NCBI GenBank assembly: GCA_964291315.2
Contig: OZ219753.1
Span: 1,120,001 to 1,184,000 of the forward strand
DNA from: Candidatus Poribacteria bacterium
GTDB taxonomy: Bacteria > Poribacteria > WGA-4E > WGA-3G
Direction of reading: 5' to 3'
DNA length: 64,000 nucleotides
The notes under the pieces are model-generated. The model saw only the letters and a list, made by a program, of their open reading frames with translations. It made no database searches and had not been told where the DNA came from. Positions 4,544 through 24,058 of this stretch are shown here, piece after piece. Position 1 is the stretch's first letter. Each line of letters opens with the position of its first letter. The position numbers were made by a program, and so were the translations under genes.

Positions 4544-5350
4544 TCATTTTGATCCAGACAATAATTTTGAAACAGTCAATGCATTCTGACGGATCTGATC
4601 AGGTTGAAATTGAGTGTACATCCCCACAGCCATAGCGTCTGTCGGCTTAATGTTTTCAAGTGCAAGTTGCAGGGCTTCGCGCGGCTCGTTTCTGCCGGCC
4701 GCTAATACCTTAATGGCAATAATCGGTACTGGGATCGCTTGTATCGCCGCAAACGCCGCATAACGATCACTCGCTAGATAGCGCTCTCTATGTCTTGTAT
4801 GATTATACAACGCACACACATAAAAGTCAACCTCATACCCTTCAGTATAGCAATGCTTGAGAACCTGAGGATCATGCGTACCCAGTCCGACTGCACAACC
4901 AAGATCCCGAATCCGTTTGAGACTCTCGCGCAATGAATCGAGGTGCCCTTCCGCATACAACTTATCAGTCGTCCCGCCGTGATGGTAGATCGCAATCGGT
5001 TTATAGCCCGCGACAAACTTTACATATTCGCTAAGGTTCGCATATTCTGTATCTTTGGGTGTCTGAGCAATCCACCGGATTGTGCCGCCCGCGTTCCAAT
5101 ATTCATTGAGGACGCGCATGATGTGCCTATCAGCGCGAGCAAGAACGGTATTAATACCGGTCCCCTCCGCCTCTTGGAGGTCCTCCCTAATTTGGTGCGT
5201 TGTATAGTAATCTATCATGCCCTTTGATACCGCCACAGAGCGATGTGAGATACCACTATACGGATTACCCCCGATAATGAGGCGCGTGACGCGATGTGAC
5301 GAAATAGAAATTGTCGGGAGCTTCATCGGTTTATTCTCTAGCATTAACAT
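4544..5350 (-). CDS. Aldo/keto-reductase-like TIM-barrel protein of unknown function
   Basis: VTRLIIGGNP N-terminus, VGLGTH and IAIKVLAAGR motifs; start may be 5326. Confidence 0.65.
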   Translation of the reverse strand: MLMLENKPMKLPTISISSHRVTRLIIGGNPYSGISHRSVAVSKGMIDYYTTHQIREDLQEAEGTGINTVLARADRHIMRVLNEYWNAGGTIRWIAQTPKDTEYANLSEYVKFVAGYKPIAIYHHGGTTDKLYAEGHLDSLRESLKRIRDLGCAVGLGTHDPQVLKHCYTEGYEVDFYVCALYNHTRHRERYLASDRYAAFAAIQAIPVPIIAIKVLAAGRNEPREALQLALENIKPTDAMAVGMYTQFQPDQIRQNALTVSKLLSGSK

Positions 5351-5372
5351 TCTCAGAGCAGACCGTAGAGAT

Positions 5373-6068
5373 CTAGCCCTTTTTTATTAGCATTTTGTAA
5401 ATTACACCGTTCCGGTGTGTGTAAAACATGATTTCGCAAGTTTCGCTTGTTGCAGCGGATGTTCCCGCTATGTTGTGCAAAACGGTGGCTTGTTGTCCAG
5501 AGGCGATTGCACCGGATTCCGCCGGTAGAAATTCCACTGTGGGTGTCCGCCAAATGTAAATTTTTGAACCAGCCTCGTCTTCTGTTCTTCCATGCGGATT
5601 TCCCCACTCCTGAATCGCCCTTGAGATATGCTTCCTCTTCCAATAGGACTCATCTATAGGCATCTGATACCTTCTCGCGTCGCTTTTGTGGATTATACCA
5701 TTTGGACGGGTATAGAAGACCAGCTCATACAAAACGTTACTCGATGAGAAAGCGTCCGGAAGGCTCGACCGACCCTTGACATGTTCGGACGAAAGATCTT
5801 GGTACGCTTGCCTCAATAGCGGAGTCTGGACAATCATCTGCCAGACGTAAATTTTTGGACCAACCTCTCCGCCCATCATTTCGTGCGGTGACCCCCATTT
5901 CTGAATGGCTTGTGAAATATGCATCTCGTTCCACGATTCCAGAGCTTGATCTATCTCTTTCTCCGGCGACTGTTTCGGGGCGTTCATCAAATATGTCGGT
6001 GCCATACAGCCAACTAACAAAAAACTTGCAATGAACGCAAAATATAGAATGAATCTGAATCTGTTCAT
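5373..6068 (-). CDS. Hypothetical lipoprotein with two copies of a W-x3-HIS-x-AIQ-x-WG-x-P domain
   Basis: Start MNRFRFILYFAFIASFLLVGC (lipobox) at 6068, ATGA overlap with upstream gene; internal repeat visible. Confidence 0.75.
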   Translation of the reverse strand: MNRFRFILYFAFIASFLLVGCMAPTYLMNAPKQSPEKEIDQALESWNEMHISQAIQKWGSPHEMMGGEVGPKIYVWQMIVQTPLLRQAYQDLSSEHVKGRSSLPDAFSSSNVLYELVFYTRPNGIIHKSDARRYQMPIDESYWKRKHISRAIQEWGNPHGRTEDEAGSKIYIWRTPTVEFLPAESGAIASGQQATVLHNIAGTSAATSETCEIMFYTHRNGVIYKMLIKKG

Positions 6069-6535
6069 TTCAAACTGCTCCTTTTCCGTTCCCGCAAAGC
6101 CGGATCGTAAATTCTTTTTAGCCCAGTTTTGGAGATTATACCGTTTGGCCGTGTATAGAACGTGAGCTGATAGGTGTGTCCTGTTGAAAAGTGAGATCCA
6201 CCTACACTCTTCAGGCCGCTCGGACGATGTAGAAGAGAGAGCCGGCGTTTTTGTCGGAATTGAAATCCGGGTATATCCGCTTCTTGTCCAGCGAAGAATC
6301 CGCGTATAGGTATTTCCCAGATATAAGTTTGCCAACCTGCTCCATCATCGCTAACTTCGATGGGTGATCCCCATTTCTGGATCGCTTTTGAAATGTGTGT
6401 GCCCCGCCATACCGCTACAGTCCGTTGTAGATTCTCATGTTGCGTCGGTTCCGATATCGGTACTAAATGTGTCGGCCCCACACAGCTTGTGAGCAGAACG
6501 CCTACTGCAAACATAAAACAGGTGAGTCTGAGCAT
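6065..6535 (-). CDS. Hypothetical lipoprotein with one copy of the same domain
   Basis: MLRLTCFMFAVGVLLTSC lipobox, AGGAG SD upstream; WRGTHISKAIQKWGSP...YQLTFYTRPNGII. Confidence 0.75.
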   Translation of the reverse strand: MLRLTCFMFAVGVLLTSCVGPTHLVPISEPTQHENLQRTVAVWRGTHISKAIQKWGSPIEVSDDGAGWQTYIWEIPIRGFFAGQEADIPGFQFRQKRRLSLLHRPSGLKSVGGSHFSTGHTYQLTFYTRPNGIISKTGLKRIYDPALRERKRSSLK

Positions 6536-6842
6536 TTTAAAACTCCTAGTATAGATGAGAGACAAATTGTATTGTTACGCACAAAAAATAAAACATGCTA
6601 CACTAAATAAAATAAGCAATTTACGTGCCAAAGTAAAATATAACGGAGAAGGTGGAGCTATTGCGGCTTTGGCGGGTTTAAAAACAGTATCCGTTGCACG
6701 AAATAGGGCAAACGAAGTTATAAACGCACGGATTTGTGCAAATGCCGCTCGGAAAAGGTCCATGGAACCGCTTAATTGCTTTTCCATGAGATTGCGCCAT
6801 TAAAGTAATGTGAGCTTGAAAAAAGAGTGAGTAGACTCCTTT

Positions 6843-6897
6843 GTAGCATAACCTGTCATGTGGGGCAGTAGCGCTAGTAGCAGAGTCTGTTAGACTG
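6843..6897 (+). repeat. Two GTAG-type REP-like elements (one degenerate)
   Basis: gtagcataacctgtcatgtgg (6843) and gtagcagagtctgttagactg (6877); same family as reverse-complement copies at 50399-50482. Confidence 0.65.
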
Positions 6898-7003
6898 TGC
6901 ATCCGGCGCATCACCCGTTCGGTCATACAACTCACGTGAGATTTCAGGTTATCTCTGATAGAAGAGACCTCATTGTATAAAATCCTGTATTTTGAGGTGT
7001 ATC

Positions 7004-7108
7004 ATGACGAAAGCGAACGCTCGCCATCTGCTGAATATATTAGCAGATATCCGAGATTTTCGCAACCCGTGCGGCAGACGGCATTTGCTCTCTGCTATCC
7101 TCGCTTGA
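7004..7108 (+). pseudogene. N-terminal remnant of an ISAs1-family transposase
   Basis: GAGGTG SD then MTKANARHLLNILADIRDFRNPCGRRHLLSAILA*, matching the L..I.D.R...GRRH.L..IL start of ISAs1 transposases. Confidence 0.6.
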
Positions 7109-7133
7109 CAAAACAAGCGGTGCGTGCTATATT
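7105..7133 (+). promoter_or_regulatory. Sigma70-type promoter of the R-M gene
   Basis: TTGACA-N17-TATATT with extended -10 TG. Confidence 0.7.
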
Positions 7134-7224
7134 AGGAGAGTGAAGCACCCGTCTCGTTGGTCGGGTCTATTTTCCAAGATGTCCGTTATCCGTTTACTTA
7201 TCGCCTAACCCTTGAGGAATACCA

Positions 7225-8103
7225 ATGTCATATATACCCGTTGAAACTGTTGATACTATAACTGACTTTGAGACGCTCTTAGCGTTTTTTCGTGACACTC
7301 TCGACTGGCCGATCCCCGAAGACGTGACGCTCGGCGAGATAGCTTTCCCGTGGTCGTCATCAGAGCTGGAGCTTGATGAAACGTCTGAGGCACGAGTCGC
7401 TGACTGTCTGCAGCTGCCGCCGTTCGCGCGCGAGGCGTTGGGATTTTCTCCCGAGGTCGGCTCGCAGCCGTGGGGCATCTTCTTTGTTGAATTCAGCAGT
7501 GAGCGGGTGTATCGCACGGAGTTGCGGCGGGTTCTGCGAGGTCTGGTGGAGAGGCGCACCCGAGATGCACGGTTGCCTGCGTGGGAGCTGGATCATCTGC
7601 TGTTCATCTGCACGACTGCTGATTTTCATCGGTTTGCGTTTGCCCACTTCGCAGGTGCGGGTGCGTCTTGGCAGGATGCGGTGCTGTCTATATTCTCGTG
7701 GGATCGTGGGGATACGCACCTTCGGACGCTGTGTGAATACAACCTGCCGGCTCTGGCGTTTCCGCGTGGCGGTTTTTCGTCGTCGCAAGCGTGGGTTGCT
7801 AAATGGCAGCGTGCGTTTGATGTGGCGGCTGTGACGGATCAGTTTTTCCGTGAGTATAAGAGCGTCTTTGCGTTGGTGGAGGCCTCGCTGTCAGGGATCC
7901 CGGAGAGCGCTGTGGAGGCTCGTCGGTTGTATACGCAGCGTCTGTTGAATCGTTTGATGTTTCTGCGTTTTCTTGAGAGAAAGGGTTGGTTGCGGTATGC
8001 GGGTCGCCGGGACTACTTGCGTGCGTTGTATGAGGCTGCAATGGGCATCGAGACTCTCTCTGGCAGTGCGGAATCTATAAGAAGCGGGGGGGGTAATCTC
8101 TGA
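7225..8103 (+). CDS. Type IIG (Eco57I-like) restriction-modification enzyme, N-terminal part, ended by a frameshift at a G8 tract
   Basis: AFDVAAVTDQFFREY and RLLNRLMFLRFLERKGWL typical of type IIG enzymes; stop just after G8 (8086-8093). Confidence 0.8.
   Translation: MSYIPVETVDTITDFETLLAFFRDTLDWPIPEDVTLGEIAFPWSSSELELDETSEARVADCLQLPPFAREALGFSPEVGSQPWGIFFVEFSSERVYRTELRRVLRGLVERRTRDARLPAWELDHLLFICTTADFHRFAFAHFAGAGASWQDAVLSIFSWDRGDTHLRTLCEYNLPALAFPRGGFSSSQAWVAKWQRAFDVAAVTDQFFREYKSVFALVEASLSGIPESAVEARRLYTQRLLNRLMFLRFLERKGWLRYAGRRDYLRALYEAAMGIETLSGSAESIRSGGGNL
8086..8093 (+). repeat. Poly-G8 tract, candidate phase-variation switch
   Basis: Removing one G joins 7225..8103 to 8132..10459 in frame. 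Confidence 0.75.
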
Positions 8104-12167: not shown

Positions 12168-13004
12168 GTGAGCGATACCACTATGGGATCTAACGATGTT
12201 GCAATGACCTTCTGGGAACATCTTGAGGAGCTCCGAAGGCGCATTATCATTTCTGCAATCGCAATAGCTATTTTTACGTTGTTGAGTTTATCTTTTAGTA
12301 AACCTATCGAGCGCGTCATTAAGTTTCCTTTAGAAACTTCTATGAACACTCTGATTGCGAATGCTATTGATACCGCACCTGGTTCTGAAGGTTCAATACT
12401 TGGTTTTCTCGCTCTCGCTTTGCGTGCTGGAAATTCCAACATCAACGCTACCCTCATGAAAGTTGGCCCCTTAGAGGGTATTATGGCGTACCTGAAATTA
12501 GGAATAACCACGGGTATTCTATTGGCGTTACCGATAATCATTTATCACGTTTGGGCATTCGTTTTTCCGGCGTTAAATCGGGAGGAACAACGGTTTGCTA
12601 TTCCGCTCTTTTTAATCATTGTCACATTTTTTATTCTTGGTGCCACTTTTGCCTACTTTATTGTTACGCCTGTTGTCTTACAATTTTCTGCGCAACTGCT
12701 TCCAGAGCTACCTAACATCTGGGATCTGGAAAAATATATTAATTTTGTAACCCGGTTAATTTTGGGATTTGGTATCGCTTTTGAGCTGCCGATAGTGATG
12801 GCGTTTCTGTCATATATCGGCATAATTGATGCCCGCGGGTTTCGTGAAAAGCAGAATTATGCCCTGCTAGGTATCTGTATTATGTCAGCTTTATTGACCC
12901 CTGCTGATCCTGGTTCAATGCTATTGATGGCGATACCGCTGTTCATTTTATATCAACTCGGCATCTTCTTCGCCTATCTTGTCGAAAAGGAGTCAGAAAT
13001 CTAA
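12168..13004 (+). CDS. tatC: Twin-arginine translocase TatC
   Basis: MTFWEHLEELRRRII, FGIAFELP, LLTPADPGSM. Confidence 0.96.
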   Translation: MSDTTMGSNDVAMTFWEHLEELRRRIIISAIAIAIFTLLSLSFSKPIERVIKFPLETSMNTLIANAIDTAPGSEGSILGFLALALRAGNSNINATLMKVGPLEGIMAYLKLGITTGILLALPIIIYHVWAFVFPALNREEQRFAIPLFLIIVTFFILGATFAYFIVTPVVLQFSAQLLPELPNIWDLEKYINFVTRLILGFGIAFELPIVMAFLSYIGIIDARGFREKQNYALLGICIMSALLTPADPGSMLLMAIPLFILYQLGIFFAYLVEKESEI

Positions 13005-13777
13005 TGGCTAACGAGTCTTTGCGGCAGCAACTCGCTCTACTCTACCAATTGCAAGAACACGATTTGGAACTGTTATCTATCCGCGAAAAAATTCGGGCTA
13101 TCCCGGTGCAGATTGCACAATTAGCGGAGGGAGTCAAACGATATGAGGAAGAGATTGCGGTCAAATCGGCTGAACTTGAGGAAAAAGAGAAGGGGCAGCG
13201 TGCGAAAAACGCTGAGCTTGAAATGAACGCTGTGCAACGCGAAAAATACCGGACTGAACAACGGACGGTGACATCTAACGAAGCTTATACTGCCCTGGAA
13301 CGCCAGATCGAATTTCTGGATAGCAAAGATGAAGAGACTGAAGATGCCATCTTAGCTCTTATGGAAGAGAGTGACCAAGTAAAGGAAGCGCTGGCAAAAC
13401 TAGAAGCCGCGGTGAGTCGAGAAATAAAAAAAACAGATGTTCGAACGCAAGAACTCGAAGAAAAACTACATGCCTTAAAAACAGAGAGAGATGAAAAGTT
13501 AAAGCATCGGAAGACGTTCCTTCCAAAGGTCGATGAGAAGCTCAAAAGCGAATACCACAGATGGATGAAAGCTCGACTTTCAAACCGTTCTAAAACAGCA
13601 CAGACGAAAATAGGTTTTGTGGCATTAGTTAAAAGAGGTACTTGTGGTAGTTGCCGTATCGCCCTTCAACCGCAGACTCTTAAAGAGGCAGAAAAGTATC
13701 AGGAGCCGGTTTATTGTTCAAATTGTAAAAGGTTGCTCTATGTTGAGCCTGTTACACCGGGCATTCCTTTCCCCTGA
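13004..13777 (+). CDS. Coiled-coil protein with C4-type zinc ribbon (DUF164/CT398-like)
   Basis: L.QLQE.D start, long coiled coil, CGSC...CSNCKRLLY. Confidence 0.88.
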   Translation: MANESLRQQLALLYQLQEHDLELLSIREKIRAIPVQIAQLAEGVKRYEEEIAVKSAELEEKEKGQRAKNAELEMNAVQREKYRTEQRTVTSNEAYTALERQIEFLDSKDEETEDAILALMEESDQVKEALAKLEAAVSREIKKTDVRTQELEEKLHALKTERDEKLKHRKTFLPKVDEKLKSEYHRWMKARLSNRSKTAQTKIGFVALVKRGTCGSCRIALQPQTLKEAEKYQEPVYCSNCKRLLYVEPVTPGIPFP

Positions 13778-13850: not shown

Positions 13851-14177
13851 ATGCCATTCTTTATCATCAATGAACAACCAGAAACGCAGATTTTTGACGG
13901 GGCCAGCATTCGGACCCTTCATGGTGAAAAAATAATGATGTCCTTTGTCGATTTGAAACCGCATAGCGTTGTTGCGGAACATAGCCATCCTCATGAGCAG
14001 ATGGGAATGGTACTTGAGGGGACGTTTGAATTAACTATTGATGGTGACTCCCGCCTCCTGAAAAAAGGAGATGCCTACCTCATTCCATCTCATGTGAAAC
14101 ACAGTGCAAAAGCGCTAGATGAACCTGCAGTTGCCCTCGACATTTTCAGTCCGCCGCGAGAAGATTACAAGCAGTGA
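13851..14177 (+). CDS. Cupin domain protein
   Basis: HSHPHEQ...G.....IPSHVKH, DIFSPPREDY. Confidence 0.92.
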   Translation: MPFFIINEQPETQIFDGASIRTLHGEKIMMSFVDLKPHSVVAEHSHPHEQMGMVLEGTFELTIDGDSRLLKKGDAYLIPSHVKHSAKALDEPAVALDIFSPPREDYKQ

Positions 14178-14929
14178 AGATGTATCAAGCCATTCAGGAA
14201 CTTGAAACCGTCGGCATCGTCACTGCCGGTACCACCTTCCGCCATGGAGGAGTTAGTCGTGGCCCATACGCCTCCATGAATCTTGCTGAACATGTTGGGG
14301 ACGATCTAAGTGCGGTTACAACCAACAGAGAGATTTTCTTTCGGCAAAGTGGGTTCACAGATATCCACTATTGCGAGCAGGTGCACAGTGCTTGTGTTAT
14401 TGACGTTGATCACACCCCGGGTGTAGTCTTCAAACAACATCCGGAAGCGGATGCCCTTATCTCGGCTCAAAGCGGGGTGCCCTTAGGTATATTCACAGCG
14501 GATTGTGTTCCTATATTCATCTTAGATGTTGCCACCCCTGCTGTTGGGATCGCTCACGCGGGCTGGCGGGGTACGCTTGCAGGAATCGCAATGAATACGC
14601 TTGAGCGCATGCAGACCTGTTTTGGAACTCACCCTATAAAGTGTCATGTCCATTTAGGCCCATCCATCCAAAAATGCTGCTATACCGTCAGTCCAGGATT
14701 GCTTGATCGATTTACGGTCCGCTTCGGGAACATCGTGCGCAGTGCTACAAACTTGAGCTTGCAAACCGCAAATGCTGTCCAATTAACCGAAATAGGTGTA
14801 CCCGCCTCCGCAATCTCAGTCTCCGCGTTCTGTACCGCCTGCCGTACCGACCTTTTTTTTTCTCACCGCGTAGAAGCGGGGAAAACAGGTAGGATGCTTT
14901 CATTTATTCAACTTGACGTGAAGAGCTAA
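14174..14929 (+). CDS. pgeF: Peptidoglycan editing factor PgeF (YfiH/YlmD family)
   Basis: QVHS, ADALI, TADCVPI, AHAGWRG, GPSI, CT.C...FFSHR, TGRM. Confidence 0.93.
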   Translation: MKMYQAIQELETVGIVTAGTTFRHGGVSRGPYASMNLAEHVGDDLSAVTTNREIFFRQSGFTDIHYCEQVHSACVIDVDHTPGVVFKQHPEADALISAQSGVPLGIFTADCVPIFILDVATPAVGIAHAGWRGTLAGIAMNTLERMQTCFGTHPIKCHVHLGPSIQKCCYTVSPGLLDRFTVRFGNIVRSATNLSLQTANAVQLTEIGVPASAISVSAFCTACRTDLFFSHRVEAGKTGRMLSFIQLDVKS

Positions 14930-15163
14930 CAACTATTCAAGAGGTCGGATTCTCGGATCTAACAAAAATTTGCATTTTGTGTAAAGATATAGTATTATTA
15001 ATATACATAATAGAAATGCCATCACTGGAAGGAGCGTGTCCGAGTCCTGCAGTCGTAACCTCACGCCGCTTCAGAACGTCTTTTTCCAAAGACCTGATTT
15101 TATTAAATACAATAGCCTTTAAAGACCGCTGTTCAGTAACAATTTAGTATATCTTGGAGGAAG

Positions 15164-15472
15164 GTGGAAATGCGAGTCTTTTTCATGGCGTTATCAATTA
15201 TCATAGGTATCATCGGGTTGGTTTTTATTTTACAAGGCGTTTATCACCCCTTCAAGTACCAAGAGGTGTTGTCTGAGAATGTGAGTGCAGTGCAAGTCAC
15301 GCAAGTCTATACAGAGGCAACGCACAGTATAGCAATAGGTATCGGTATCGTTAGTGTAGCGGTCTTAGTTGCGGTTATAGGTATACTCTTTTATATAAAC
15401 AAACCTATACAAGAACAAAAACGGCCGAGGAACGGTTCGAATACGCAAGCGCTGGGCGATTTTGCATCCTGA
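15164..15472 (+). CDS. Hypothetical two-TM membrane protein
   Basis: GGAGG SD; two hydrophobic segments. Confidence 0.65.
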   Translation: MEMRVFFMALSIIIGIIGLVFILQGVYHPFKYQEVLSENVSAVQVTQVYTEATHSIAIGIGIVSVAVLVAVIGILFYINKPIQEQKRPRNGSNTQALGDFAS

Positions 15473-15545
15473 CTCGTTCTTCTTAATTGTGCCAACTTTG
15501 GAATCGAAGGGCGTGATTTAGGACATCATACGAGGGCCATGTCAA

Positions 15546-16271
15546 TTGAAATCGATTGCCGATAACCTTTCTTGTATCAACCAGCGTATCGCCAACGCTG
15601 CTGCCCGCAGTAACCGCGCGGGAGGTTCAATAAGGCTTGTTGTTGTTACAAAAGGGCGTTCCGTTGCAGAGATGCAGGCGGTTCTTGCTACTGGGGTTGT
15701 GGACATCGGGGAAAATAGGGTTCAAGAAGCCCAACAGAAGTACACAATAGTGAATTCTTTGGTTGACACCGAGGTTGCTCCATCTGCTGATAGAGCATGC
15801 CGATGGCATCTCATCGGGCATTTGCAAAGAAATAAAGTCAAAACGGCATTAAACATCTTCTCGCTGATTCATTCGGTTGACAGTTTGCGACTTTTAGCGG
15901 AGATAGCACGCCGTTCTGAAGAATGCTCACAACAGACAGATGTTTTAATTCAGGTAAACACAACCGGTGAGGCTAGTAAATACGGTTTAGATGCGGATGG
16001 TTTGCTCGGATTTATGGAAGATGCGCAGGCGTACCCGCTAGTACATATTGCTGGATTGATGACGATAGGACAGTTAAGCCACTCACCTGATGTAAACCGG
16101 CCGGCATTTGCTTTGCTCAGATCACTTGCTGAAAAAATAGAATCCCAGAAATTCCCTGGAGTTACTATGCGGTATCTCTCGATGGGAATGACAAATGACT
16201 TTGAGGTTGCTATTGAAGAGGGGGCAAATCTTGTTAGAATTGGAACTGCAATCTTTTGCCCTTCAACGTAA
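15546..16271 (+). CDS. yggS: YggS family PLP homeostasis protein
   Basis: LVVVTK, GENRVQE, WHLIGHLQRNK, LSMGMTNDFEVAIEEGANLVRIG. Confidence 0.96.
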   Translation: MKSIADNLSCINQRIANAAARSNRAGGSIRLVVVTKGRSVAEMQAVLATGVVDIGENRVQEAQQKYTIVNSLVDTEVAPSADRACRWHLIGHLQRNKVKTALNIFSLIHSVDSLRLLAEIARRSEECSQQTDVLIQVNTTGEASKYGLDADGLLGFMEDAQAYPLVHIAGLMTIGQLSHSPDVNRPAFALLRSLAEKIESQKFPGVTMRYLSMGMTNDFEVAIEEGANLVRIGTAIFCPST

Positions 16272-16320
16272 GTTTCAAACATATAGTAGCAAGCGGTGGA
16301 AATTCTAAGAGGAAAAGACA

Positions 16321-17133
16321 GTGGTAGAAGACCTTCGATTAGGTGTGATAGGCGTTGGAAAGATGGGTGGCATCGTTGTGCGCGGTATTGCTGGAAAGGC
16401 GTTCCCCTCACGGCAGATTTGGGTTACAGATCTGGATACGCGGCTCGTCAGGCAGCTCTGTGATGAAAAGGGCACAAATGACGCTGGGGACATTGATACC
16501 TTGGTAGAAAAGACCGACGTGATTCTCTGTGCAGTGCCTCCCGCGGCTGTTCCGCACATTCTGCCACAAGTTGCATGCAATTTATCAAGGGCGCAATCGC
16601 TGATTAGCATCGCTGCCGGTGTGTCGACAACAACGCTCGAGTCCTATTTTGATACACCACCTGCTGTTGTTCGGGTGATGCCGAATATCGCGGCTTCGGT
16701 AGGTGCAGCGATCTCGGTACTAACAGTGGGTAGCACAGCGAATAAAGAACATCTTGCAATAGCAGAGAGAATTTTCAACGCCTGTGGCAGCACTTTAGTC
16801 ATGGAAGAACGTCATCTTGATGCGGTCACCGGTGTGAGTGGGAGTGGCCCCGCCTATGTTGCTCTTTTTATTGAAGCTTTGGCTGATGCTGGTGTGCACG
16901 CGGGCTTACCTCGGTCAGATGCGCAAAAACTTGCAACACACACCGTATTAGGTTCAGCAGCGATGTTAGCCAGAACACAAGAACATCCTGCGATTCTAAA
17001 GAATCGAGTTACAACACCGGGTGGGACAACTGCCGCTGGACTCCATGCTTTGGAAAAAGGGGGCTTGAGGGCAACGCTTACTGAAGCCATTCTCGCCGCA
17101 ACTCAACGTTCAAAAGAACTCGACAACACATAA
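16321..17133 (+). CDS. proC: Pyrroline-5-carboxylate reductase
   Basis: GVGKMG, SIAAG, VRVMPN, SGSGPAY, VTTPGGTT. Confidence 0.96.
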   Translation: MVEDLRLGVIGVGKMGGIVVRGIAGKAFPSRQIWVTDLDTRLVRQLCDEKGTNDAGDIDTLVEKTDVILCAVPPAAVPHILPQVACNLSRAQSLISIAAGVSTTTLESYFDTPPAVVRVMPNIAASVGAAISVLTVGSTANKEHLAIAERIFNACGSTLVMEERHLDAVTGVSGSGPAYVALFIEALADAGVHAGLPRSDAQKLATHTVLGSAAMLARTQEHPAILKNRVTTPGGTTAAGLHALEKGGLRATLTEAILAATQRSKELDNT

Positions 17134-17157
17134 GATCGGAAAATAACAGAAAAAATT

Positions 17158-17424
17158 ATGGATCTACTGGCTTGGGTTCTCAGTCAGCTTATTGACCTTT
17201 ATGTATTCGTCGTCATAGGAAACGCTATTCTTTCATGGTTTGTTTATGGCACACAAAATTCGACAATCAGGCAGATCTATTGGTGGACAAGTCGCATCGT
17301 GGATCCGGCGCTGGGTCCGATTCGCAGGGCCCTCGGACCAATGTCTCGAAATCTTGGTATTGACCTCTCTCCATTTATCCTGATTTTTTTGTTAATGATC
17401 TTGCAGCGGGCCCTCTTGCCATAA
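17158..17424 (+). CDS. yggT: YggT family membrane protein
   Basis: AILSWF...DP.L.PIRR...GIDLSP; yggS-proC-yggT context. Confidence 0.92.
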   Translation: MDLLAWVLSQLIDLYVFVVIGNAILSWFVYGTQNSTIRQIYWWTSRIVDPALGPIRRALGPMSRNLGIDLSPFILIFLLMILQRALLP

Positions 17425-17519
17425 ACAGGGGTGAGGCGATTAGTATAAACGAAGGACAACCGTACCAGAGATCTGTTCGATAAAACAGTAAATGCTTTAG
17501 AAGCGAGCGTACGAAAAAT

Positions 17520-20288
17520 ATGGATAAAGGAACTCTGTCCGCGAAAGGCGCGACACGTAAATCTGGGAAAATAGGCGAGGCATCAGGTTCTCACCAGCTA
17601 ACCGACCGGGTAGAAGAAAAAGCGATGCTCGACATCTGGGCAGATCTCAATATTTACGCTATATTGAGTAAAGAAAGTAACACAACGGATGCTAACCCGG
17701 AACAGACCTCTCCCTCCTTTGAAACTCAAGCTTATGTGCTTCGCGAGATGCCTACTCTTGTTCATCAATTGACCCTTGACACGTTTTGTAGAAAGATTAT
17801 TCAGGATATTTTCCTGAAAGCTGAGTCAATGTGCGGCCATCGCGTCACATACGTCCCGGTGTGGGAAACTTACTCGCTCTGGATAGAAGAACAGGTTATC
17901 GCAGCAGCGAAATCCAAATCTCCAATCAAACTCTCTGCTCTTCGGAAGCGGTGCCGGGCTCGCCACAAACAGGCTTTAGAAACCCAGAAGAAGAGGTTGC
18001 ATGAGCTCGGTATTTTTGCTGATTGGGATACCTCGCAGAAGAGGCTTGAATCGCGGCAAGAAGCGAGACTCATCGCTCTTATTAGTCGATTACGGGATTC
18101 TGGCTACCTCTATGACATCCCTCAACTCAGTCCCTGGTGTCCCAAATGCACAATTCCGCTTAATGAAACCAGTGGTATACAGAGGCCAACGCAGGCATTG
18201 AAAAGCTTTGTAAAGTTTCCGTTCAATGTTGGCTTAGAGGAATTTGGCACTAATGTTTTCTTCTGTGTGCAGCTGCCTTACCTTCGAGAAATAGCAGGGA
18301 CGGTGGAATTAGGGATTACTGAGAATACCACCTATTGGCTCACTCAATTCGCGTCTGAATTTCTGCTTTTCACCGAACCACAGTTGAAAAATTTCTGTCA
18401 ACATCTTGCTAAGAGCCAACGTTATCCTAGACGGATTAAAGAGATCAAGGCAACTGAACTTACAGGATGCACTGTAGCCCATCCGCTTTTTCCATCAAAA
18501 AAGTTAGATATTAGGTTGATTCCTGAACGTTTCATCAAAGATGTTCCACATTTGCAATCGACGGATCTCTTAAAATCCGGTGTTCTGCCTCTAAGTCCGG
18601 CTCATGATCAACTCAGCTACGACATTGCACAAGAATTAAAAATGGTTTCCACGCCTATTTTTGACGAAACGGGAAGGTTGACAGAAGAAGCTGGTCACTT
18701 GTGCGGTTTATATCTATCTGATGTTGAAAAGCCTATTATCCTGCAATTAGAAAAGTTTGGATACCTTCTGAAAAGATATAACGAAGAACAGCACGAACCG
18801 CACTGTCCTCGCTGCGGGGAATTAGCAGTTTTGCGCCCGTGTTCACAATGGGAATTCTCTATTACTGAAAATCCTGCCACTGTCCAATCCCTCAACGCCC
18901 AAGATCATTGGGATAATTATGGGAACACGGAACACAAAAATATTGTTGATGTCCGAGCGGCAGTGCTGAATTTCAACAGTTTGCAAGTTTCATCACAACG
19001 CCAATGGGGGATGCCTTTACCAATATTGCTCTGTGACCAGTGTGATAAACCTCTGGCGGATAAAAATACGCTCAGCGCCATCAGGAACTCTGTCCAGCGT
19101 GGGTTTGAATCTTGGTTTCGATTAAGTGTAGAGGAGCTCTTACCGGCCAATACTCACTGTCCGAGCTGTACTTCAAGTGAATTCCGTAAAGAAGCTACGA
19201 TCATTGACTGCCATTTTGCAAACTTACTTCAAATTGTTGACAGTTCCGATTTCAAGAAAGCGCTTGGTGGTTCGACAAGCATCATGTTCGTTCCACAACC
19301 GAGTCAGAGTGATTCTAAGTGGATAAGATGGTTGGCTGAAATCAGTGTTATCTCCGCTGCGCTTACCAGAAGCCGTCCGATTAAAGAAAGTCAGCCTTTT
19401 AAACAACTAAAACTTGATGCGCTGCCAAAAATTAGCAGCAACATCGAAATTGAGGAGGCTTTCCTGAACAAATATCCAGCGGATGTGTTACGTCTTGTTG
19501 CCATGACAGCTGATCTGAGTGAGCAACGGGTTACGCAGCAACGTCTTGAGGAGATTGCAGAGGATCGCCTAATCGAGTATCAACAGCTACAAACCTTCTT
19601 AGCACACGTTAGTTTTCTCGTCCGTAGATTGCGGGAGGAAGGAAAAGATAATAGAGAGGGACATACCGAAAACGGAGACGCGAATAAAACGGATCGGTTC
19701 TCCTCTCCGGGAGAAACACGTGAGGTCAATCGGCACCCCCAGACCTCTGATGAACAGCAGGTGGAACAAGAGGATATTCACCTTGCGGGGGCACCGGCAG
19801 AACCTAATCTCGAAACATTAGATATGAATGGGCTCAGAACTACCGTCGCTGATCAAAGTTTCACTACTGATTTAGTTGTAACAACCGTTACGGCTCAGTT
19901 TCTGAAAGAAGTAGAGACGGCTTATCAACATCGACGTTTCCATGAGATGTGGAAAATGTTAACGACTTTCTGTAAGCAAGATCTTGGATTCTACGTGCAC
20001 TTGTTTGAATCGGGTGATGCTGCAATTGTTGACACAGCGCGGGACAGACTTCCACAAATCAGCATCGCGCTTCTTCAACGTTTCGCGCCGCTGACTCCTT
20101 TTTTGGCGGAACATTTCTATCGTCTGATCTCTTCAGCGGACGGAAGCGATAAGCAGAGCATTTTTCAGAAAAGCTGGCGTTCAGTGTCGCCTGCAATTAG
20201 GCAAGATATGGGGGTTTCCCCTACCAAGAAAGATGATGCAAAAGCGGAATGGGAGGCCCTCAAAAATGTCCATAATACAGAAGTCTAA
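17520..20288 (+). CDS. Isoleucyl-tRNA synthetase-like protein with degenerate catalytic motifs (predicted inactive paralogue)
   Basis: Colinear with IleRS (KIIQDI, YVPVWE, LGIFADWD, HPLF, SSQRQWGMPLP, YPADVLRL, FAPLTPFLAEHFY) and upstream of lspA, but no HIGH or KMSKS. Confidence 0.85.
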   Translation: MDKGTLSAKGATRKSGKIGEASGSHQLTDRVEEKAMLDIWADLNIYAILSKESNTTDANPEQTSPSFETQAYVLREMPTLVHQLTLDTFCRKIIQDIFLKAESMCGHRVTYVPVWETYSLWIEEQVIAAAKSKSPIKLSALRKRCRARHKQALETQKKRLHELGIFADWDTSQKRLESRQEARLIALISRLRDSGYLYDIPQLSPWCPKCTIPLNETSGIQRPTQALKSFVKFPFNVGLEEFGTNVFFCVQLPYLREIAGTVELGITENTTYWLTQFASEFLLFTEPQLKNFCQHLAKSQRYPRRIKEIKATELTGCTVAHPLFPSKKLDIRLIPERFIKDVPHLQSTDLLKSGVLPLSPAHDQLSYDIAQELKMVSTPIFDETGRLTEEAGHLCGLYLSDVEKPIILQLEKFGYLLKRYNEEQHEPHCPRCGELAVLRPCSQWEFSITENPATVQSLNAQDHWDNYGNTEHKNIVDVRAAVLNFNSLQVSSQRQWGMPLPILLCDQCDKPLADKNTLSAIRNSVQRGFESWFRLSVEELLPANTHCPSCTSSEFRKEATIIDCHFANLLQIVDSSDFKKALGGSTSIMFVPQPSQSDSKWIRWLAEISVISAALTRSRPIKESQPFKQLKLDALPKISSNIEIEEAFLNKYPADVLRLVAMTADLSEQRVTQQRLEEIAEDRLIEYQQLQTFLAHVSFLVRRLREEGKDNREGHTENGDANKTDRFSSPGETREVNRHPQTSDEQQVEQEDIHLAGAPAEPNLETLDMNGLRTTVADQSFTTDLVVTTVTAQFLKEVETAYQHRRFHEMWKMLTTFCKQDLGFYVHLFESGDAAIVDTARDRLPQISIALLQRFAPLTPFLAEHFYRLISSADGSDKQSIFQKSWRSVSPAIRQDMGVSPTKKDDAKAEWEALKNVHNTEV

Positions 20289-20775
20289 AATATCTTGGCA
20301 AACTGCTGCGCCACTAATCAACGTAGCGGTCCCGATGCTAATATTGGATTGGGTGAGTAAGTGGTTTGTGCAAATGCATATCACTCAGATCACAGAAGTG
20401 ATTCCGATCATTCCAGGGTTCTTTAATCTCCGGCATGATAGAAATACGGGGGCAGCTTTCGGTGTGCTTGCGGGACACAGAGTTTTACTTATTTTGATTA
20501 CTATCGCTGCCTTAGTTTTCATCATCACATACTATTTACGTTTCAAGGAGAGTCGCTGGATGCAAACCTCACTCGGCTTTCTGCTTGGTGGTGCTATTGG
20601 CAACTTTATTGACAGGATTCGCCTGGGTGAAGTCGTCGATTTCCTTCAATTCGGTATAGCAAGTAAAGGATTGTATTGGCCAACGTTCAACATTGCTGAT
20701 GTTTCCGTCTGTATTGGGGCAGGCATGCTAATTGTTTATCTATTTCGCCATCGTAATGAAAATTATCAAGACTGA
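20266..20775 (+). CDS. lspA: Lipoprotein signal peptidase II
   Basis: NTGAAFG, GGAIGNFIDR, VVDF, FNIAD; start uncertain (20233 or 20266). Confidence 0.96.
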   Translation: MSIIQKSKISWQTAAPLINVAVPMLILDWVSKWFVQMHITQITEVIPIIPGFFNLRHDRNTGAAFGVLAGHRVLLILITIAALVFIITYYLRFKESRWMQTSLGFLLGGAIGNFIDRIRLGEVVDFLQFGIASKGLYWPTFNIADVSVCIGAGMLIVYLFRHRNENYQD

Positions 20776-20851
20776 CTATTGAGAGATCCACAAACAGGCC
20801 TGTGAGTCTATTCGGAAATCCAAAACTGCTTTTCATTTAGGAACGTGATCT

Positions 20852-21415
20852 ATGTATAAATTTGTCACTCAGTTTCTCACGCTTAGCTGCCTTGCGCTTA
20901 CAATAGTCTCAAATGCAGAAGCGCAATTTCGGGTAGCGCCGCCAGAAAATCAGACGCAACAAGGGGCATCGGAAAAGTATAGTGAAAGTGCGTTGCGTCG
21001 TTTTGAGATTATTACGTTGAGTTCACTGCCGTTCACTGCTGTTCACAGCTACGCGATTGTGCGCGGCATTAAAATGTACACCGAAAATCAATTTGCCCCT
21101 GAGTTATCCGTTGCGGACTATCGGGTAATCGGTATCGGTGCGGTCTCTTTGTCTCTATTTATCGGATTGTGGGATTGGTTCCATACCCGCAAAGTGGACC
21201 GGGCTGCACCACGTATTCCTGAAAGAACCAAACCTCCGTTGCCTGAAGAGGAAGAGCCTATAGAAGGGCCAATCGCTCGTCTGTCGAACACCGCGCCATA
21301 CGCAGCAAAATATAGAGGCGGATCTCTAGAAGGATCGATAGATAAAGCTCTGAATAGATGGACAAATGAGCCCGCTGCTGGTTTTGCTATATCGTTTATT
21401 CAAATTCGTTTCTAA
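20852..21415 (+). CDS. Hypothetical exported/membrane protein
   Basis: Signal peptide ending AEA, further hydrophobic segments, in operon. Confidence 0.7.
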   Translation: MYKFVTQFLTLSCLALTIVSNAEAQFRVAPPENQTQQGASEKYSESALRRFEIITLSSLPFTAVHSYAIVRGIKMYTENQFAPELSVADYRVIGIGAVSLSLFIGLWDWFHTRKVDRAAPRIPERTKPPLPEEEEPIEGPIARLSNTAPYAAKYRGGSLEGSIDKALNRWTNEPAAGFAISFIQIRF

Positions 21416-21453
21416 CTTTGGTTAATCTACTGGAATGGCTGTACAACTACAAA

Positions 21454-22407
21454 ATGCGCACTCTCTTTATGGGTACCAGCGAGTTTGCTGTTCCTGCCCT
21501 CAAATCGCTCATTTCACACAATTTTGAACTTGTAGGTGTTGTTACGCAGCCTGATCGTCCAAGTGGGCGCGGGCGGCGATTCAACCCGTCGCCTGTCAAA
21601 GTTGTAGCAACACAACACAACTTACCGATTTATCAGCCTATTCGGGCGCGAAATCAGGATTTCGTTCGGACTCTTAAAAATCTCATTCCTGATGTAATTG
21701 TTGTTGCTGCTTTCGGCCAACTTTTGCCGCAGACGGTTTTAGATATTCCGCCGTGCGGAACTATCAACCTGCATCCATCCATTCTTCCAAAGTATCGTGG
21801 TGCTGCGCCTATTCAATGGGCGTTAATTAATGGGGAGGAGGAAACAGGGGTGACACTAATGTTATTAGATGCTGGTGAGGATACAGGTGACATTATCTGC
21901 TCGGAGCGGATCCGAATTGAAAACGCAGACACGGCTTTTACTTTGACAGATCAGTTAGCAAATCTCGGTGCAAAAGGGCTTATCCGGGTACTATCAGACA
22001 TGCCAGGGAATGCTCCGCCACCTGCGACACCCCAGAATGACGCGGAAGCGACACACGCTCCCCGCTTGACAAAAGAGTCCGGGCATATGAATTGGAATCA
22101 ACCGGCAACTGCAATCCACAATCTTGTGAGGGGGACAGCAATCTGGCCAGGTGCGTACACCTTTTTTCGCGAGAATATTAGGCTCAAAATTATCAGCTGT
22201 CAACCACAGCCACAGCTGCTCGATGTGCCGCCGGGAACGCTCGAAATAGTAGGAAGGCAAAAACTGTTTGTTGCGACAGGTGATGGGGCACTCCAGCTTT
22301 TGCGAATGCAACCGGCAACTAAAAAGGCGATGGAAGCGCGAGATTTTATCAACGGCTATCAACTCCGAACGAGCGACCGATTCCTAACACAAGCGCAAAA
22401 TGAATGA
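21454..22407 (+). CDS. fmt: Methionyl-tRNA formyltransferase
   Basis: FMGT.EFA, VVTQPDRPSGRG, INLHPSILPKYRGAAPIQ. Confidence 0.97.
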   Translation: MRTLFMGTSEFAVPALKSLISHNFELVGVVTQPDRPSGRGRRFNPSPVKVVATQHNLPIYQPIRARNQDFVRTLKNLIPDVIVVAAFGQLLPQTVLDIPPCGTINLHPSILPKYRGAAPIQWALINGEEETGVTLMLLDAGEDTGDIICSERIRIENADTAFTLTDQLANLGAKGLIRVLSDMPGNAPPPATPQNDAEATHAPRLTKESGHMNWNQPATAIHNLVRGTAIWPGAYTFFRENIRLKIISCQPQPQLLDVPPGTLEIVGRQKLFVATGDGALQLLRMQPATKKAMEARDFINGYQLRTSDRFLTQAQNE

Positions 22408-23377
22408 CCTTAATAATACCTTATTTGCGACCTTCAAGGTTTTCCTCTATCTCTTAATACTGCTTGGTATAGCGGGGCTGTTAGTTATTTTTGTGATTAT
22501 TCCAAGGTGGGTTCGGACCGAGGAGGTACTCGTTCCGAATATTGTCGGTAAAACCTACTATGAAGCTGTTCGTATTCTTGGTGATGTTGGTCTCCAACCT
22601 TCAGAAACTCTTCAAGAAGCCAGCAGTAGTGCCCCTAAGGGTGAAGTTGTTATCCAAAACCCGCAGGCTAATTTTAGGATCAAGCACTACCAGCCTGTTC
22701 AAATCACAGTGAGTATTGGTGCGGAACTGACCCCTGTTCCTTCTGTTATTGGCAAATTGCAGGATGTGGCCTTTGATGTCTTAACTGCGGCTGGATTTCG
22801 TCCGAACCGGGTCGCCTACGTTCATTCTGAAAATTATGTCCAAGGCACTGTGATTGCACAAACCCCACCGGAGGGTGGCGGTCAACAACGTGGAGCCCCG
22901 GTCAACCTCCTTGTGAGCCGCGGCCCGACACCACAATCCCTACAGCTTCCGAATTTTCAAAAGCAGCCTGCGAATGATGTTGTATCTACGCTAGAGGGTG
23001 TCGGCCTAAAAATTGAAACACGATATAGCTCCCATCCGACGATTCCTGCTGGCGCGATTATTACCCATAACCCTTCAGCTGGCGCGATGGTCCAAACTGG
23101 AGATTTAGTTCTCCTTGAAATCAGTGGTGTGCAAGGCACCTCCCAAAAGATTGGTAGTCCCTTACCGTTCAAGCATACTGTCAGCGAAGAAGGGAAACTA
23201 TCGCGCCATGTCAGAATTGTTATAATTGACGACTACGGTGAACGCACTGAAATAGATCAGCACTATGCCCCCGGCACAGTGATTGACTTGGAACGAAAAG
23301 GGGTTCGAGTTTTTGGCAAGACACGCGTGATTATCCACGAAAATGGTGAAAAATTGCCCGAAGTCATTTATAATTAA
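22400..23377 (+). CDS. Membrane-anchored protein with three PASTA domains and no kinase domain
   Basis: N-terminal TM, VPNIVGK..., VPSVIGK..., LPNFQK... repeats each with QxP-like and VS.G motifs. Confidence 0.9.
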   Translation: MNDLNNTLFATFKVFLYLLILLGIAGLLVIFVIIPRWVRTEEVLVPNIVGKTYYEAVRILGDVGLQPSETLQEASSSAPKGEVVIQNPQANFRIKHYQPVQITVSIGAELTPVPSVIGKLQDVAFDVLTAAGFRPNRVAYVHSENYVQGTVIAQTPPEGGGQQRGAPVNLLVSRGPTPQSLQLPNFQKQPANDVVSTLEGVGLKIETRYSSHPTIPAGAIITHNPSAGAMVQTGDLVLLEISGVQGTSQKIGSPLPFKHTVSEEGKLSRHVRIVIIDDYGERTEIDQHYAPGTVIDLERKGVRVFGKTRVIIHENGEKLPEVIYN

Positions 23378-23398
23378 GATGAGCTAAGGAGGACAGAA

Positions 23399-24058
23399 AT
23401 TTCTACGCTTAAGATTGCTCCCTCACTGCTCGCTGCTGACTTCAGTCGGCTCGGTGAAGAGGTAAGACGCATAGTCGCTGCCGGTGCTGATATGTTGCAT
23501 TTTGACGTGATGGATGGTGAATTCGTCCCGAATTTTGGTATCAGTCCGCCGTTCATCGCTGCTGTGCGCGAAATGACACAAATTGCTTTTGATGTGCATA
23601 TCATGGTGATGCATCCGATTCGCTATATTGACGCGCTCGCTGCAGCAGGGGCCGATATAATCACCTTCCACATTGAGAGTAAAGATAAGCCAGAAACGGT
23701 AATTTCTGCAATAAAAGCACATGGGCTTAAGAGCGGACTCGCGCTTTCACCTAAAACCCCCGTCTCTACAGTTATACCCTATTTCTCGGACATCGACTTG
23801 GTCCTATCAATGAGTGTTGATCCTGGGTTCGGAGGTCAAGTTTTCCAACACAATGCTCTTGAAAAAATAGCGTCCTTGCATCAAATAGCGCAGAAATTGA
23901 AACCGGCTCTTGAGATATCGGTCGATGGTGGCGTAACTACAGAGATTGCCCCGCTTGCAATTCGGCAAGGGGTTACAATTCTTGTGGCAGGTACGGCTAT
24001 TTTCCGGAGCGAAAACCCGGAATCAGTTATTGAAAGACTTCGGACCGCCGCCGCTTAA
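23399..24058 (+). CDS. rpe: Ribulose-phosphate 3-epimerase (probable ATT start)
   Basis: KIAPSLLAADF, HFDVMDG.FVPN, MSVDPGFGGQ, VDGGV; TAAGGAGG 6 nt before ATT 23399. Confidence 0.95.
   Translation: MSTLKIAPSLLAADFSRLGEEVRRIVAAGADMLHFDVMDGEFVPNFGISPPFIAAVREMTQIAFDVHIMVMHPIRYIDALAAAGADIITFHIESKDKPETVISAIKAHGLKSGLALSPKTPVSTVIPYFSDIDLVLSMSVDPGFGGQVFQHNALEKIASLHQIAQKLKPALEISVDGGVTTEIAPLAIRQGVTILVAGTAIFRSENPESVIERLRTAAA

Follow-up and report, generated by a model that had tools for sequence, protein, structure and literature searches.

A motif-less relative of type-1 isoleucyl-tRNA synthetase is maintained beside lspA across most sampled Poribacteria

Main

Most sampled members of the sponge-associated phylum Poribacteria carry, directly upstream of the signal peptidase gene lspA, a relative of type-1 isoleucyl-tRNA synthetase (IleRS1) from which the catalytic signatures have been lost. 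We describe this element, here called pseudo-IleRS, in a 64,000-nucleotide stretch of Candidatus Poribacteria DNA (the window; GenBank assembly GCA_964291315.2, contig OZ219753.1, positions 1,120,001 to 1,184,000, or G000:C4:1120001-1184000 in our genome set). The assembly is 4.40 Mb in 4 contigs and 95% complete and, like all genomes compared here, is a metagenome-assembled genome (MAG) of an uncultivated bacterium. The open reading frame (ORF; P0001) occupies 17520..20288 on the + strand, starts with ATG and encodes 922 amino acids (aa) without interruption. As an initial annotation of the window had described, it lies between yggS-proC-yggT and lspA and overlaps the latter, by 23–56 nucleotides (nt). 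We put at about two in three the probability that it is a non-catalytic pseudo-synthetase, derived from a vertically inherited type-1 ileS, displaced by a type-2 enzyme (IleRS2) and retained for some fold-dependent role.

Homology to IleRS and loss of catalytic signatures

Two Pfam models recognize the window protein above their gathering thresholds, tRNA-synt_1 (E 1.1e-22, 80.9 bits; gathering 22.7) and Anticodon_1 (E 9.6e-9, 35.7 bits; gathering 25.1), and the Rossmann, CP1 and helical-bundle parts of a class Ia aminoacyl-tRNA synthetase are all present. The best-matching family is TIGR00392 (ileS; E 1.1e-53), with a score of 182.7 bits that lies below the curated cutoff of 621.4; in a scan of the genome with the same model, pseudo-IleRS scored 149.2 bits, against 962.7 for the genome's working ileS. 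The nearest solved relatives are both type-1 IleRS, from P. megaterium (8c9e, E 7.4e-32) and S. aureus (1ffy, E 1.4e-29). Judged by these sequence matches, homology to IleRS is far beyond chance.

Alignments, both pairwise and multiple, show the signature residues of both active sites replaced. The PPYANG..HxGH block reads EMPTLVHQLTLDT at residues 76–88, where the equivalent of HIGH (HxGH) is L-T-L-D/T (84–88), and this signature is missing in all 13 phylum lineages compared. GWDxHGLP has become VWETYSLW (114–121) and DVWFDSG has become DCHFANL (563–569). On the editing side, the Thr-rich peptide WTTTPWT reads QLPYLRE (251–257) and GTGxVHxAPxHGxxD reads KSGVLPLSPAHDQLS (352–366); the editing Asp region is PAHDQLS, and the conserved Asp of the motif is lost. 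The initial annotation had called both active sites lost, and every motif substitution that it listed was reproduced except that of KMSKS. This motif it had matched to KISSN: its loss stands, whereas the true equivalent is A-L-P-K-I, three residues earlier (634–638), in a loop that varies across the family.

Taking 44 IleRS1 representatives as the canonical standard, we found 101 positions with at least 85% conservation among them that have changed or vary in the pseudo-IleRS family. These span the PxxxNG-HxGH block, GWDxHGLP, the Thr-rich peptide, GTGxVHxAPxHGxxD, DVWFDSG, EGxDQxRGWF and KMSKS, and extend to the 'RNTxRF' and 'KDR' segments of the helical domain, which we take to be tRNA-contact motifs. 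The C-terminal Zn domain is missing as well, in agreement with the zinc finger reported absent earlier: in 18 pseudo-copies the tail beyond the bundle has a median length of 24.5 aa and contains 0 Cys, the corresponding figures for the 44 canonical representatives being 129 aa and 5 Cys. From its residues, the window protein is predicted to be incapable of serving as a conventional synthetase or editor.

A working type-2 IleRS in the same genome

The expectation in the initial annotation that Ile-tRNA is made by another IleRS was borne out. A second ileS lies on the same contig (G000:C4:3211285-3213792, − strand; locus L001 883-4095), with a 1070-aa frame and the 962.7-bit TIGR00392 score given above. 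It retains GVHH, GWDTHGLP, WTTTPWT, an editing GxGxVHxAPxxGxxD block and KMSKS, and IQ-TREE placed it in the IleRS2 clade. Long IleRS genes (1045–1173-aa frames) were present in all 10 further phylum genomes examined, including those that lack pseudo-IleRS; nine exceed the TIGR00392 cutoff and the tenth is interrupted by a contig end.

These data bear on the idea that pseudo-IleRS is itself a divergent but active IleRS of a third, unrecognised type. Its full-length IleRS architecture and fold would suit such an enzyme. We nevertheless regard this as highly improbable, because all signatures are gone without a conserved substitute (the former KMSKS loop has a deep-lineage conservation of only 0.28), because a canonical IleRS2 is found in every genome checked and genomes without pseudo-IleRS exist, and because variation in HXGH is not tolerated in IleRS1, according to Brkic et al.

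The working enzymes fall into two size and score classes, one with 1045–1095-aa frames and 920–996 bits and the other with 1128–1173-aa frames and 548–559 bits for the main stretch (G026, G028 and G032 compared with G027, G041, G042, G045, G075 and G115). The classes suggest two IleRS2 lineages or an insertion, and they do not follow the presence or absence of pseudo-IleRS.

The first signature of the working IleRS is GVHH in place of HxGH, a natural variant that Brkic et al. associate with mupirocin hyper-resistance. This may hint at pressure from IleRS inhibitors in the sponge microbiome as a driver of IleRS1 displacement. We also rejected, by inference, the possibility that pseudo-IleRS acts as a decoy for such inhibitors, since the residues for adenylate binding on which mupirocin-type inhibitors rely are lost.

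Phylum-wide distribution, origin and losses

A family profile search (E <= 1e-30) detected pseudo-IleRS in 136 of 151 sampled Poribacteria genomes. By family, the counts were 99/99 in f1, 22/26 in f3, 4/4 in f4, 5/5 in f5, 2/2 in f6, 1/1 in f7 and 2/2 in f8, with 0/10 in f2 and 0/1 in f9; on inspection, the single f9 genome holds a partial pseudo-IleRS at the start of a contig, 5′ of lspA. Throughout the deep lineages (families f1 and f3–f8) the gene is positioned between proC/yggT and lspA, and in every copy HIGH, GWDxHG, DxWFDSG and KMSKS are lost, as is the Thr-rich editing peptide. The motif loss is common to all lineages and is therefore ancient, an age that goes beyond what the reading of a single genome could show. 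Three deep-lineage loci (L044, L045 and L046) retain the Asp-containing half of the editing site ('APGH..DDY') that is lost in the window genus; erosion was therefore stepwise.

In a 37-row IQ-TREE phylogeny, 13 pseudo-copies form one clade (SH-aLRT 99) within IleRS1 (100), with IleRS2 apart (99), and the f8 copy, the least diverged, is the first branch of the pseudo-IleRS clade. A 131-row FastTree phylogeny likewise recovers a clade of 29 pseudo-IleRS representatives (96), none of which has HIGH or KMSKS signatures. The family is thus placed within IleRS1 and lacks the C-terminal Zn anticodon-reading domain of that type. The long pseudo-IleRS branches make attraction a concern, and synteny with lspA offers independent support for what is probably orthology. 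The most economical history has one inactivation, which followed takeover by IleRS2 and preceded the radiation of the sampled phylum.

Where the gene is absent, as in f2 and in genus g3, the inspected loci (three f2 genomes and one g3 genome) have lspA directly following yggT with the other synteny intact. The yggT-lspA spacer of these loss lineages holds no credible pseudo-IleRS remnant (best tblastn E 0.59). The two clean losses imply that pseudo-IleRS is not essential and that its role is dispensable in some backgrounds.

Orthologues are intact and under purifying selection

Pseudo-IleRS is a single open frame of 886–964 aa in 24/24 genomes of the window genus and is intact in 11/11 related MAG loci; ATG stands at the homologous start in 33/33 copies. 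Seven phylum matches had been flagged for internal stops, and all seven proved to be single intact frames, the stop falling at the edge of the match. We estimated ratios of non-synonymous to synonymous substitution (dN/dS, omega) by the pairwise Nei-Gojobori method (NG86). Among 12 sequences of the window genus (66 pairs) the median was 0.131, and the 12 closest pairs (dS 0.10–0.56) gave 0.09–0.21; eight flanking genes at the same loci gave 0.066–0.131. Two further genera gave similar values, 0.191 in g6 (45/45 pairs) and 0.175 in g9 (18/45 pairs usable, the rest being saturated).

That the ORF is a recently inactivated, decaying pseudogene, open by chance, might be argued from its long branches, which reflect faster evolution than in canonical IleRS1. 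Such a pseudogene should show interrupted copies and dN/dS near 1, and neither was found among the copies examined: the frame is open in all of them, across at least 8 families, dN/dS is 0.13–0.19 in three genera, and the loss of the motifs is old. We consider this account scarcely credible, and the suggestion in the initial annotation that the frame is being maintained holds for the orthologues too.

Predicted fold and constraint along the protein

An AlphaFold2 model of the window protein (predicted local distance difference test score, pLDDT, 75.1; predicted template modelling score, pTM, 0.71) is ordered except at residues 1–28, 52–67 and 712–779. Its top Foldseek matches are all IleRS, with E down to 7.9e-36, and VIA-align superposed 752 residues on the S. 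aureus IleRS-tRNA complex (1qu3_A; Z 25.0). Model residues 27–922 map onto residues 18–813 of this 880-residue chain, so the C-terminal domain of the solved enzyme is unmatched. For P0001 and P0029, a look-alike search of the ESM Atlas yielded nothing beyond generic class I synthetase clusters, without useful taxa. The fold has thus been kept along with the frame, as had been supposed.

Constraint is distributed unevenly over this fold. The N-terminal extension (residues 1–28; 17520..17603, + strand, as for all parts below) is rich in K/R, predicted to be disordered and weakly constrained (omega 0.42). It is followed by the first Rossmann half (residues 29–205; 17604..18134; omega 0.089), which contains the former HIGH region (residues 75–92; 17742-17795) and the former GWDxHGLP (residues 114–121). 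The CP1/editing-domain homologue (residues 206–430; 18135..18809; omega 0.111), in which the Thr-rich peptide and catalytic Asp are lost, is flanked by the Zn-knuckle pairs C207/C210 and C429/C432. Most constrained of all is the second Rossmann half with CP2 (residues 431–640; 18810..19439; omega 0.048), which carries a conserved SxQRxWGxPLP, the Zn-knuckle pairs C505/C508 and C547/C550 and the former DVWFDSG (563–569). The four CxxC pairs noted initially were thereby located; among 33 family members they are either invariant or conserved to 90% or more. The former KMSKS loop (residues 628–641, running to nt 19442) crosses into the stem-contact/helical linker (residues 641–711; 19440..19652; omega 0.174), where YPADVLRL is present and the positions matching 'RNTxRF' are lost.

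The acidic insert reported earlier corresponds to residues 712–779 (19653..19856), a predicted disordered segment of 68 aa with 15 D+E against 6 K+R that is nearly neutral (omega 0.689); inserts at this place measure 0–74 aa across the pseudo-IleRS family, compared with about 8 aa in canonical IleRS1. Beyond it lies the anticodon-binding bundle homologue (residues 780–922; 19857..20285; omega 0.208), with Anticodon_1 matched on 789–892 and no type-1 C-terminal Zn domain after it. Net charge and K+R content of each domain are as in canonical IleRS1 and provide no electrostatic argument for or against RNA binding.

What selection preserves is the fold, and the Rossmann/CP core most of all. In a comparison of 18 deep lineages, the canonical IleRS1 residue is conserved at 44 positions, chiefly W, P, G and Cys. 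Variability is among the highest in the former KMSKS loop (deep-lineage conservation 0.28, as above) and in the 'KDR' segment (0.24). We considered whether the active site had been re-purposed and rejected this, the ex-functional positions not being above average in conservation.

Weighing a fold-dependent role against a function-less relic

Because the fold has been retained and the sequence is under purifying selection, pseudo-IleRS is most likely a pseudoenzyme, acting as a binding or scaffold protein. Under this reading the window ORF would be the vertically inherited type-1 ileS of Poribacteria, still at the ancestral ileS-lspA position. It would have ceased to be a synthetase ahead of the diversification of the sampled phylum, Ile-tRNA synthesis having passed to a type-2 IleRS, here with GVHH. 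The residues that mark ATP binding, activation of isoleucine, post-transfer editing and canonical contact with tRNA have given way to others, and the Zn domain that reads the anticodon at the C terminus is deleted. What remains is a folded, IleRS-shaped protein with two structural Zn knuckles, under purifying selection as strong as that on its housekeeping neighbours, and any function would rest on the preserved Rossmann/CP core and not on the old active sites.

Several observations sit less comfortably with such a role. The 101 ex-functional positions are no better conserved than ordinary ones: within the genus the majority fraction is 0.848, against 0.820 at ordinary structured positions (permutation p 0.10), and across deep lineages it is 0.358 against 0.429. 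Since the ex-functional sites are not more conserved than the rest, the old sites have been released and not re-purposed. Positions conserved specifically in the family number only 12, chiefly hydrophobic or Gly, and form no obvious new site; the few polar family-conserved residues are R179, E240 and R522. The pattern looks like maintenance of the fold and nothing more, which would also fit a function-less translated relic. In some lineages the protein shortens, within an overall range of 729–1011 aa, and it is cleanly deleted in f2 (0/10) and in genus g3 (0/4). No partner or ligand was found. A search for RNA datasets containing the ORF found none, a result that is uninformative on expression in either direction. 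The NG86 medians are also approximate, dS being near 1 in many pairs of the genus, and close pairs (dS 0.10–0.33) agree with them.

Much of this would be expected if the ORF were a translated relic with no function of its own, kept open for the sake of the overlapping essential lspA through polarity or translational coupling, and constrained in sequence against misfolding of a costly 900-aa product. The 23–56-nt overlap of lspA with the end of the ORF favours that view, as do the concentration of conservation in structural-core residues (W, P, G and Zn-ligand Cys) with the ex-functional sites released, the shrinkage in some lineages and full excision in two, and the occurrence of a second, independent IleRS1 relic also upstream of lspA (see below). 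We nonetheless judge the relic explanation unlikely, although it is the main rival to a fold-dependent role. Omega values of 0.05–0.11 over about 600 core residues are at housekeeping level, stronger than would be expected from avoidance of misfolding alone. A g9 copy of family f1 (L053) has no overlap with lspA, yet omega in g9 is 0.18. Excision is mechanically easy, yet 136 of the 151 genomes have kept 2.2–3 kb of sequence across phylum-level divergence.

We therefore prefer a fold-dependent role and infer from the pattern of selection that pseudo-IleRS probably has a function of its own and that this function would be binding or scaffolding. The non-enzymatic role proposed in the initial annotation is supported to that extent; its suggestion of tRNA binding is weakened, in that the 'RNTxRF' and 'KDR' positions and the C-terminal domain are lost. 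The partner might be a protein, or an RNA held on the acceptor-arm side. Were the ligand RNA, recognition through the anticodon would be unlikely, because the C-terminal reader is deleted, the bundle is loosened and the acidic, disordered insert interrupts it. In real enzymes the CP/Rossmann core cradles the acceptor arm. For an RNA ligand this constrained core may be the better candidate surface, and a protein partner is equally possible.

Comparison with known synthetases and paralogues

Canonical type-1 IleRS (S. aureus 1qu2/1qu3/1ffy and P. megaterium 8c9e) shares with pseudo-IleRS its clade, the lspA-adjacent position and the Rossmann + CP1 + bundle architecture, as well as structural Cys positions (C429 and C505 are conserved in both). 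Identity between the two is only 17–19%, and pseudo-IleRS differs in the 101 changed canonical positions, in its extra N-terminal extension and acidic insert, and in lacking HIGH, KMSKS, the editing motifs and the C-terminal Zn domain.

According to Zanki et al. (2022, bioRxiv 10.1101/2022.02.09.479832), bacteria use either ileS1 or ileS2, and the two co-occur only in Bacillaceae. Bacillaceae resemble Poribacteria in having an IleRS1-lineage gene and an IleRS2 in one genome, IleRS2 being described there as the mupirocin-resistant type. They differ in that both Bacillaceae enzymes are reported as active, with IleRS1 as the fast housekeeping enzyme, whereas the Poribacteria IleRS1 is predicted to be catalytically dead, leaving IleRS2 as sole synthetase.

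Brkic et al. report HXGH in all 158 IleRS1 surveyed and inactivity of a motif-swapped IleRS1, and link GXHH in IleRS2 to mupirocin hyper-resistance. Many otherwise canonical IleRS1 in our set read HxGT and not HxGH (P0024, P0042, P0046, P0049, P0052, P0060 and P0078); these representatives keep KMSKS, GWDxHG and WTTTPWT. They sit oddly with the claim of HXGH in all IleRS1.

Among IleRS paralogues, reviews list IleRS2 and SbzA, together with the archaeal LeuRS-I, a non-aminoacylating class Ia paralogue that still adenylates (PMC9437257). SbzA of Streptomyces (PMC12945691, PMC9437257) is, like pseudo-IleRS, an IleRS homologue of full architecture with a role beyond charging tRNA for translation; as described there, it holds its substrate with HYGH and AMSKA, aminoacylates weakly, has a C-terminal tRNA-binding domain and belongs to a biosynthetic cluster. 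None of these features is found in pseudo-IleRS, which lacks HxGH and xMSKx and has yggS, proC, yggT, lspA and fmt as its neighbours.

SbzA is the natural model for a further explanation, that pseudo-IleRS is an enzyme with other chemistry, either an SbzA-like aminoacyl-tRNA-dependent transferase or a free-standing CP1 trans-editing deacylase. An IleRS homologue that moves Ile from Ile-tRNA to a metabolite is on record in SbzA; the core of pseudo-IleRS is strongly constrained, and L044, L045 and L046 keep the editing-type 'APGH..DDY'. Still, SbzA is reported to keep and use both HYGH and AMSKA, and pseudo-IleRS has neither. No lineage retains the Thr-rich editing peptide, the window genus has lost the editing Asp, the 12 family-specific positions form no family-wide conserved polar constellation, the tRNA-contact motifs and C-terminal domain are gone, and the neighbours are housekeeping genes and not a biosynthetic cluster. 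With this balance we hold other chemistry to be quite improbable.

LeuRS-I of Sulfolobaceae and LeuRS2 of Halobacteria are archaeal and are LeuRS, not IleRS; according to PMC9437257, LeuRS-I still forms leucyl-adenylate and binds tRNA, so that its synthetic site is alive, whereas that of pseudo-IleRS is lost. The paralogue table of that source also lists HisZ. Pseudo-IleRS falls in the same general category, that of pseudo-synthetases, as HisZ and the HisRS-like domain of GCN2, which differ in having a class II fold and known partners. Both are inactive synthetase homologues with regulatory or binding roles, their partners being HisG and uncharged tRNA.

The initial annotation knew of no described full-length bacterial pseudo-IleRS, and full-text literature searches likewise returned none. 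Poribacteria with isoleucyl-tRNA synthetase gave no paper in full-text search; full-text searches for a pseudo-IleRS or IleRS paralogue gave nothing relevant beyond SbzA and mupA; and a search on Poribacteria with aminoacyl-tRNA synthetase gave nothing relevant by title and abstract start. No description of pseudo-IleRS was thus found in searchable full text, and supplementary trees and alignments, which lie outside such searches (those of Brkic et al. and of a 2026 preprint on the IleRS C terminus), could hold such sequences.

Set beside these rules, Poribacteria as a phylum keep a motif-less IleRS1 together with a working IleRS2, with selection on the former at housekeeping strength. If functional, pseudo-IleRS would represent a new family of bacterial pseudoenzymes that originated from an essential enzyme of translation, and our interpretation, if true, would make it a natural experiment in what becomes of an essential enzyme once it is displaced. 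With more than 130 genomes, natural knock-outs in two lineages and an erosion gradient from 1011 to 729 aa, it offers a tractable system for non-catalytic roles of synthetase scaffolds. Relics of this kind are open to mis-annotation as isoleucine--tRNA ligase and, since the ileS gene serves as a phylogenomic marker, deserve flagging.

Other degenerate IleRS1 lineages

The homologue set consisted of the best 150 of 2012 matches in a representative library of 1.84 billion proteins, and several IleRS1-length proteins among these best 150 have degenerate signatures and fall outside the Poribacteria clade. Degenerate HIGH and/or KMSKS occur at various tree positions (P0031, P0039, P0037, P0057, P0063, P0065, P0061, P0076 and P0054), and some degenerate IleRS1-like forms are unusually long, at 1242–1469 aa (P0048, P0055, P0066 and P0146).

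One further protein, P0032, was traced into two metagenome contigs of 64–65% GC (L083 and L084), which carry 80%-identical, fully motif-less copies of 934 aa, each at 4920-7721 with lspA about 0.8 kb downstream. An intermediate form is encoded on a 61% GC contig (L085 4938-7790): it keeps HLGH, GWDTHGLP, WTTTPWT and DVWFDSG and has lost KMSKS and part of the editing motif. A 53% GC contig (L086 2591-5443) has a fully canonical IleRS1, in the gene order yggS-proC-...-ileS-lspA. In at least one further lineage, of high GC, IleRS1 next to lspA thus shows graded decay. IleRS1 relics in this position have arisen at least twice, the presence of IleRS2 being known for Poribacteria, and the phenomenon may well be general, as these contigs suggest. 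We lean towards the broader view that pseudo-IleRS is an ancient, phylum-wide, full-length IleRS1 shell, that it lost synthesis, editing and canonical tRNA recognition once IleRS2 had displaced it, that selection has preserved it since then for a new fold-dependent, non-catalytic function, and that such an outcome is recurrent. It would then be the first family of class Ia pseudo-synthetases in bacteria.

Gene neighbourhood and minor observations

Pfam identifies the genes around pseudo-IleRS. Upstream are a yfiH-like gene (14174-14929), yggS, encoding a YggS-type PLP protein (15546-16271), proC (ProC; 16321-17133) and yggT (YGGT; 17158-17424); the last three (15546..17424, + strand) are retained alongside pseudo-IleRS throughout the phylum. 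The gene for signal peptidase II, lspA (Peptidase_A8; 20233-20775, + strand), begins within the 3′ end of pseudo-IleRS: its plausible ATG codons at 20233, 20236 and 20266 all precede the stop codon at 20286-20288, which gives the range of 23–56 nt for the overlap. After lspA come a 187-aa ORF (20852-21415, + strand), fmt and a PASTA-domain gene.

An Rfam scan of the entire window gave zero matches, and hence no T-box or other known leader 5′ of pseudo-IleRS. Consensus scans of 15000-23500 returned 8 promoter-like sites, where 11.2 were expected, and 13 terminator-like sites, where 8.3 were expected; they are uninformative on operon structure.

The 187-aa ORF has no Pfam match; it adjoins lspA phylum-wide, also in lineages without pseudo-IleRS, with a dN/dS of 0.13. 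Nor does Pfam match the 102-aa ORF (15164-15472, + strand) that lies between yggS and the yfiH-like gene. Further upstream, 13004-13777 (+ strand) encodes an ordinary protein of 257 aa in which a CT398-like coiled-coil hairpin is combined with a C4 zinc ribbon.

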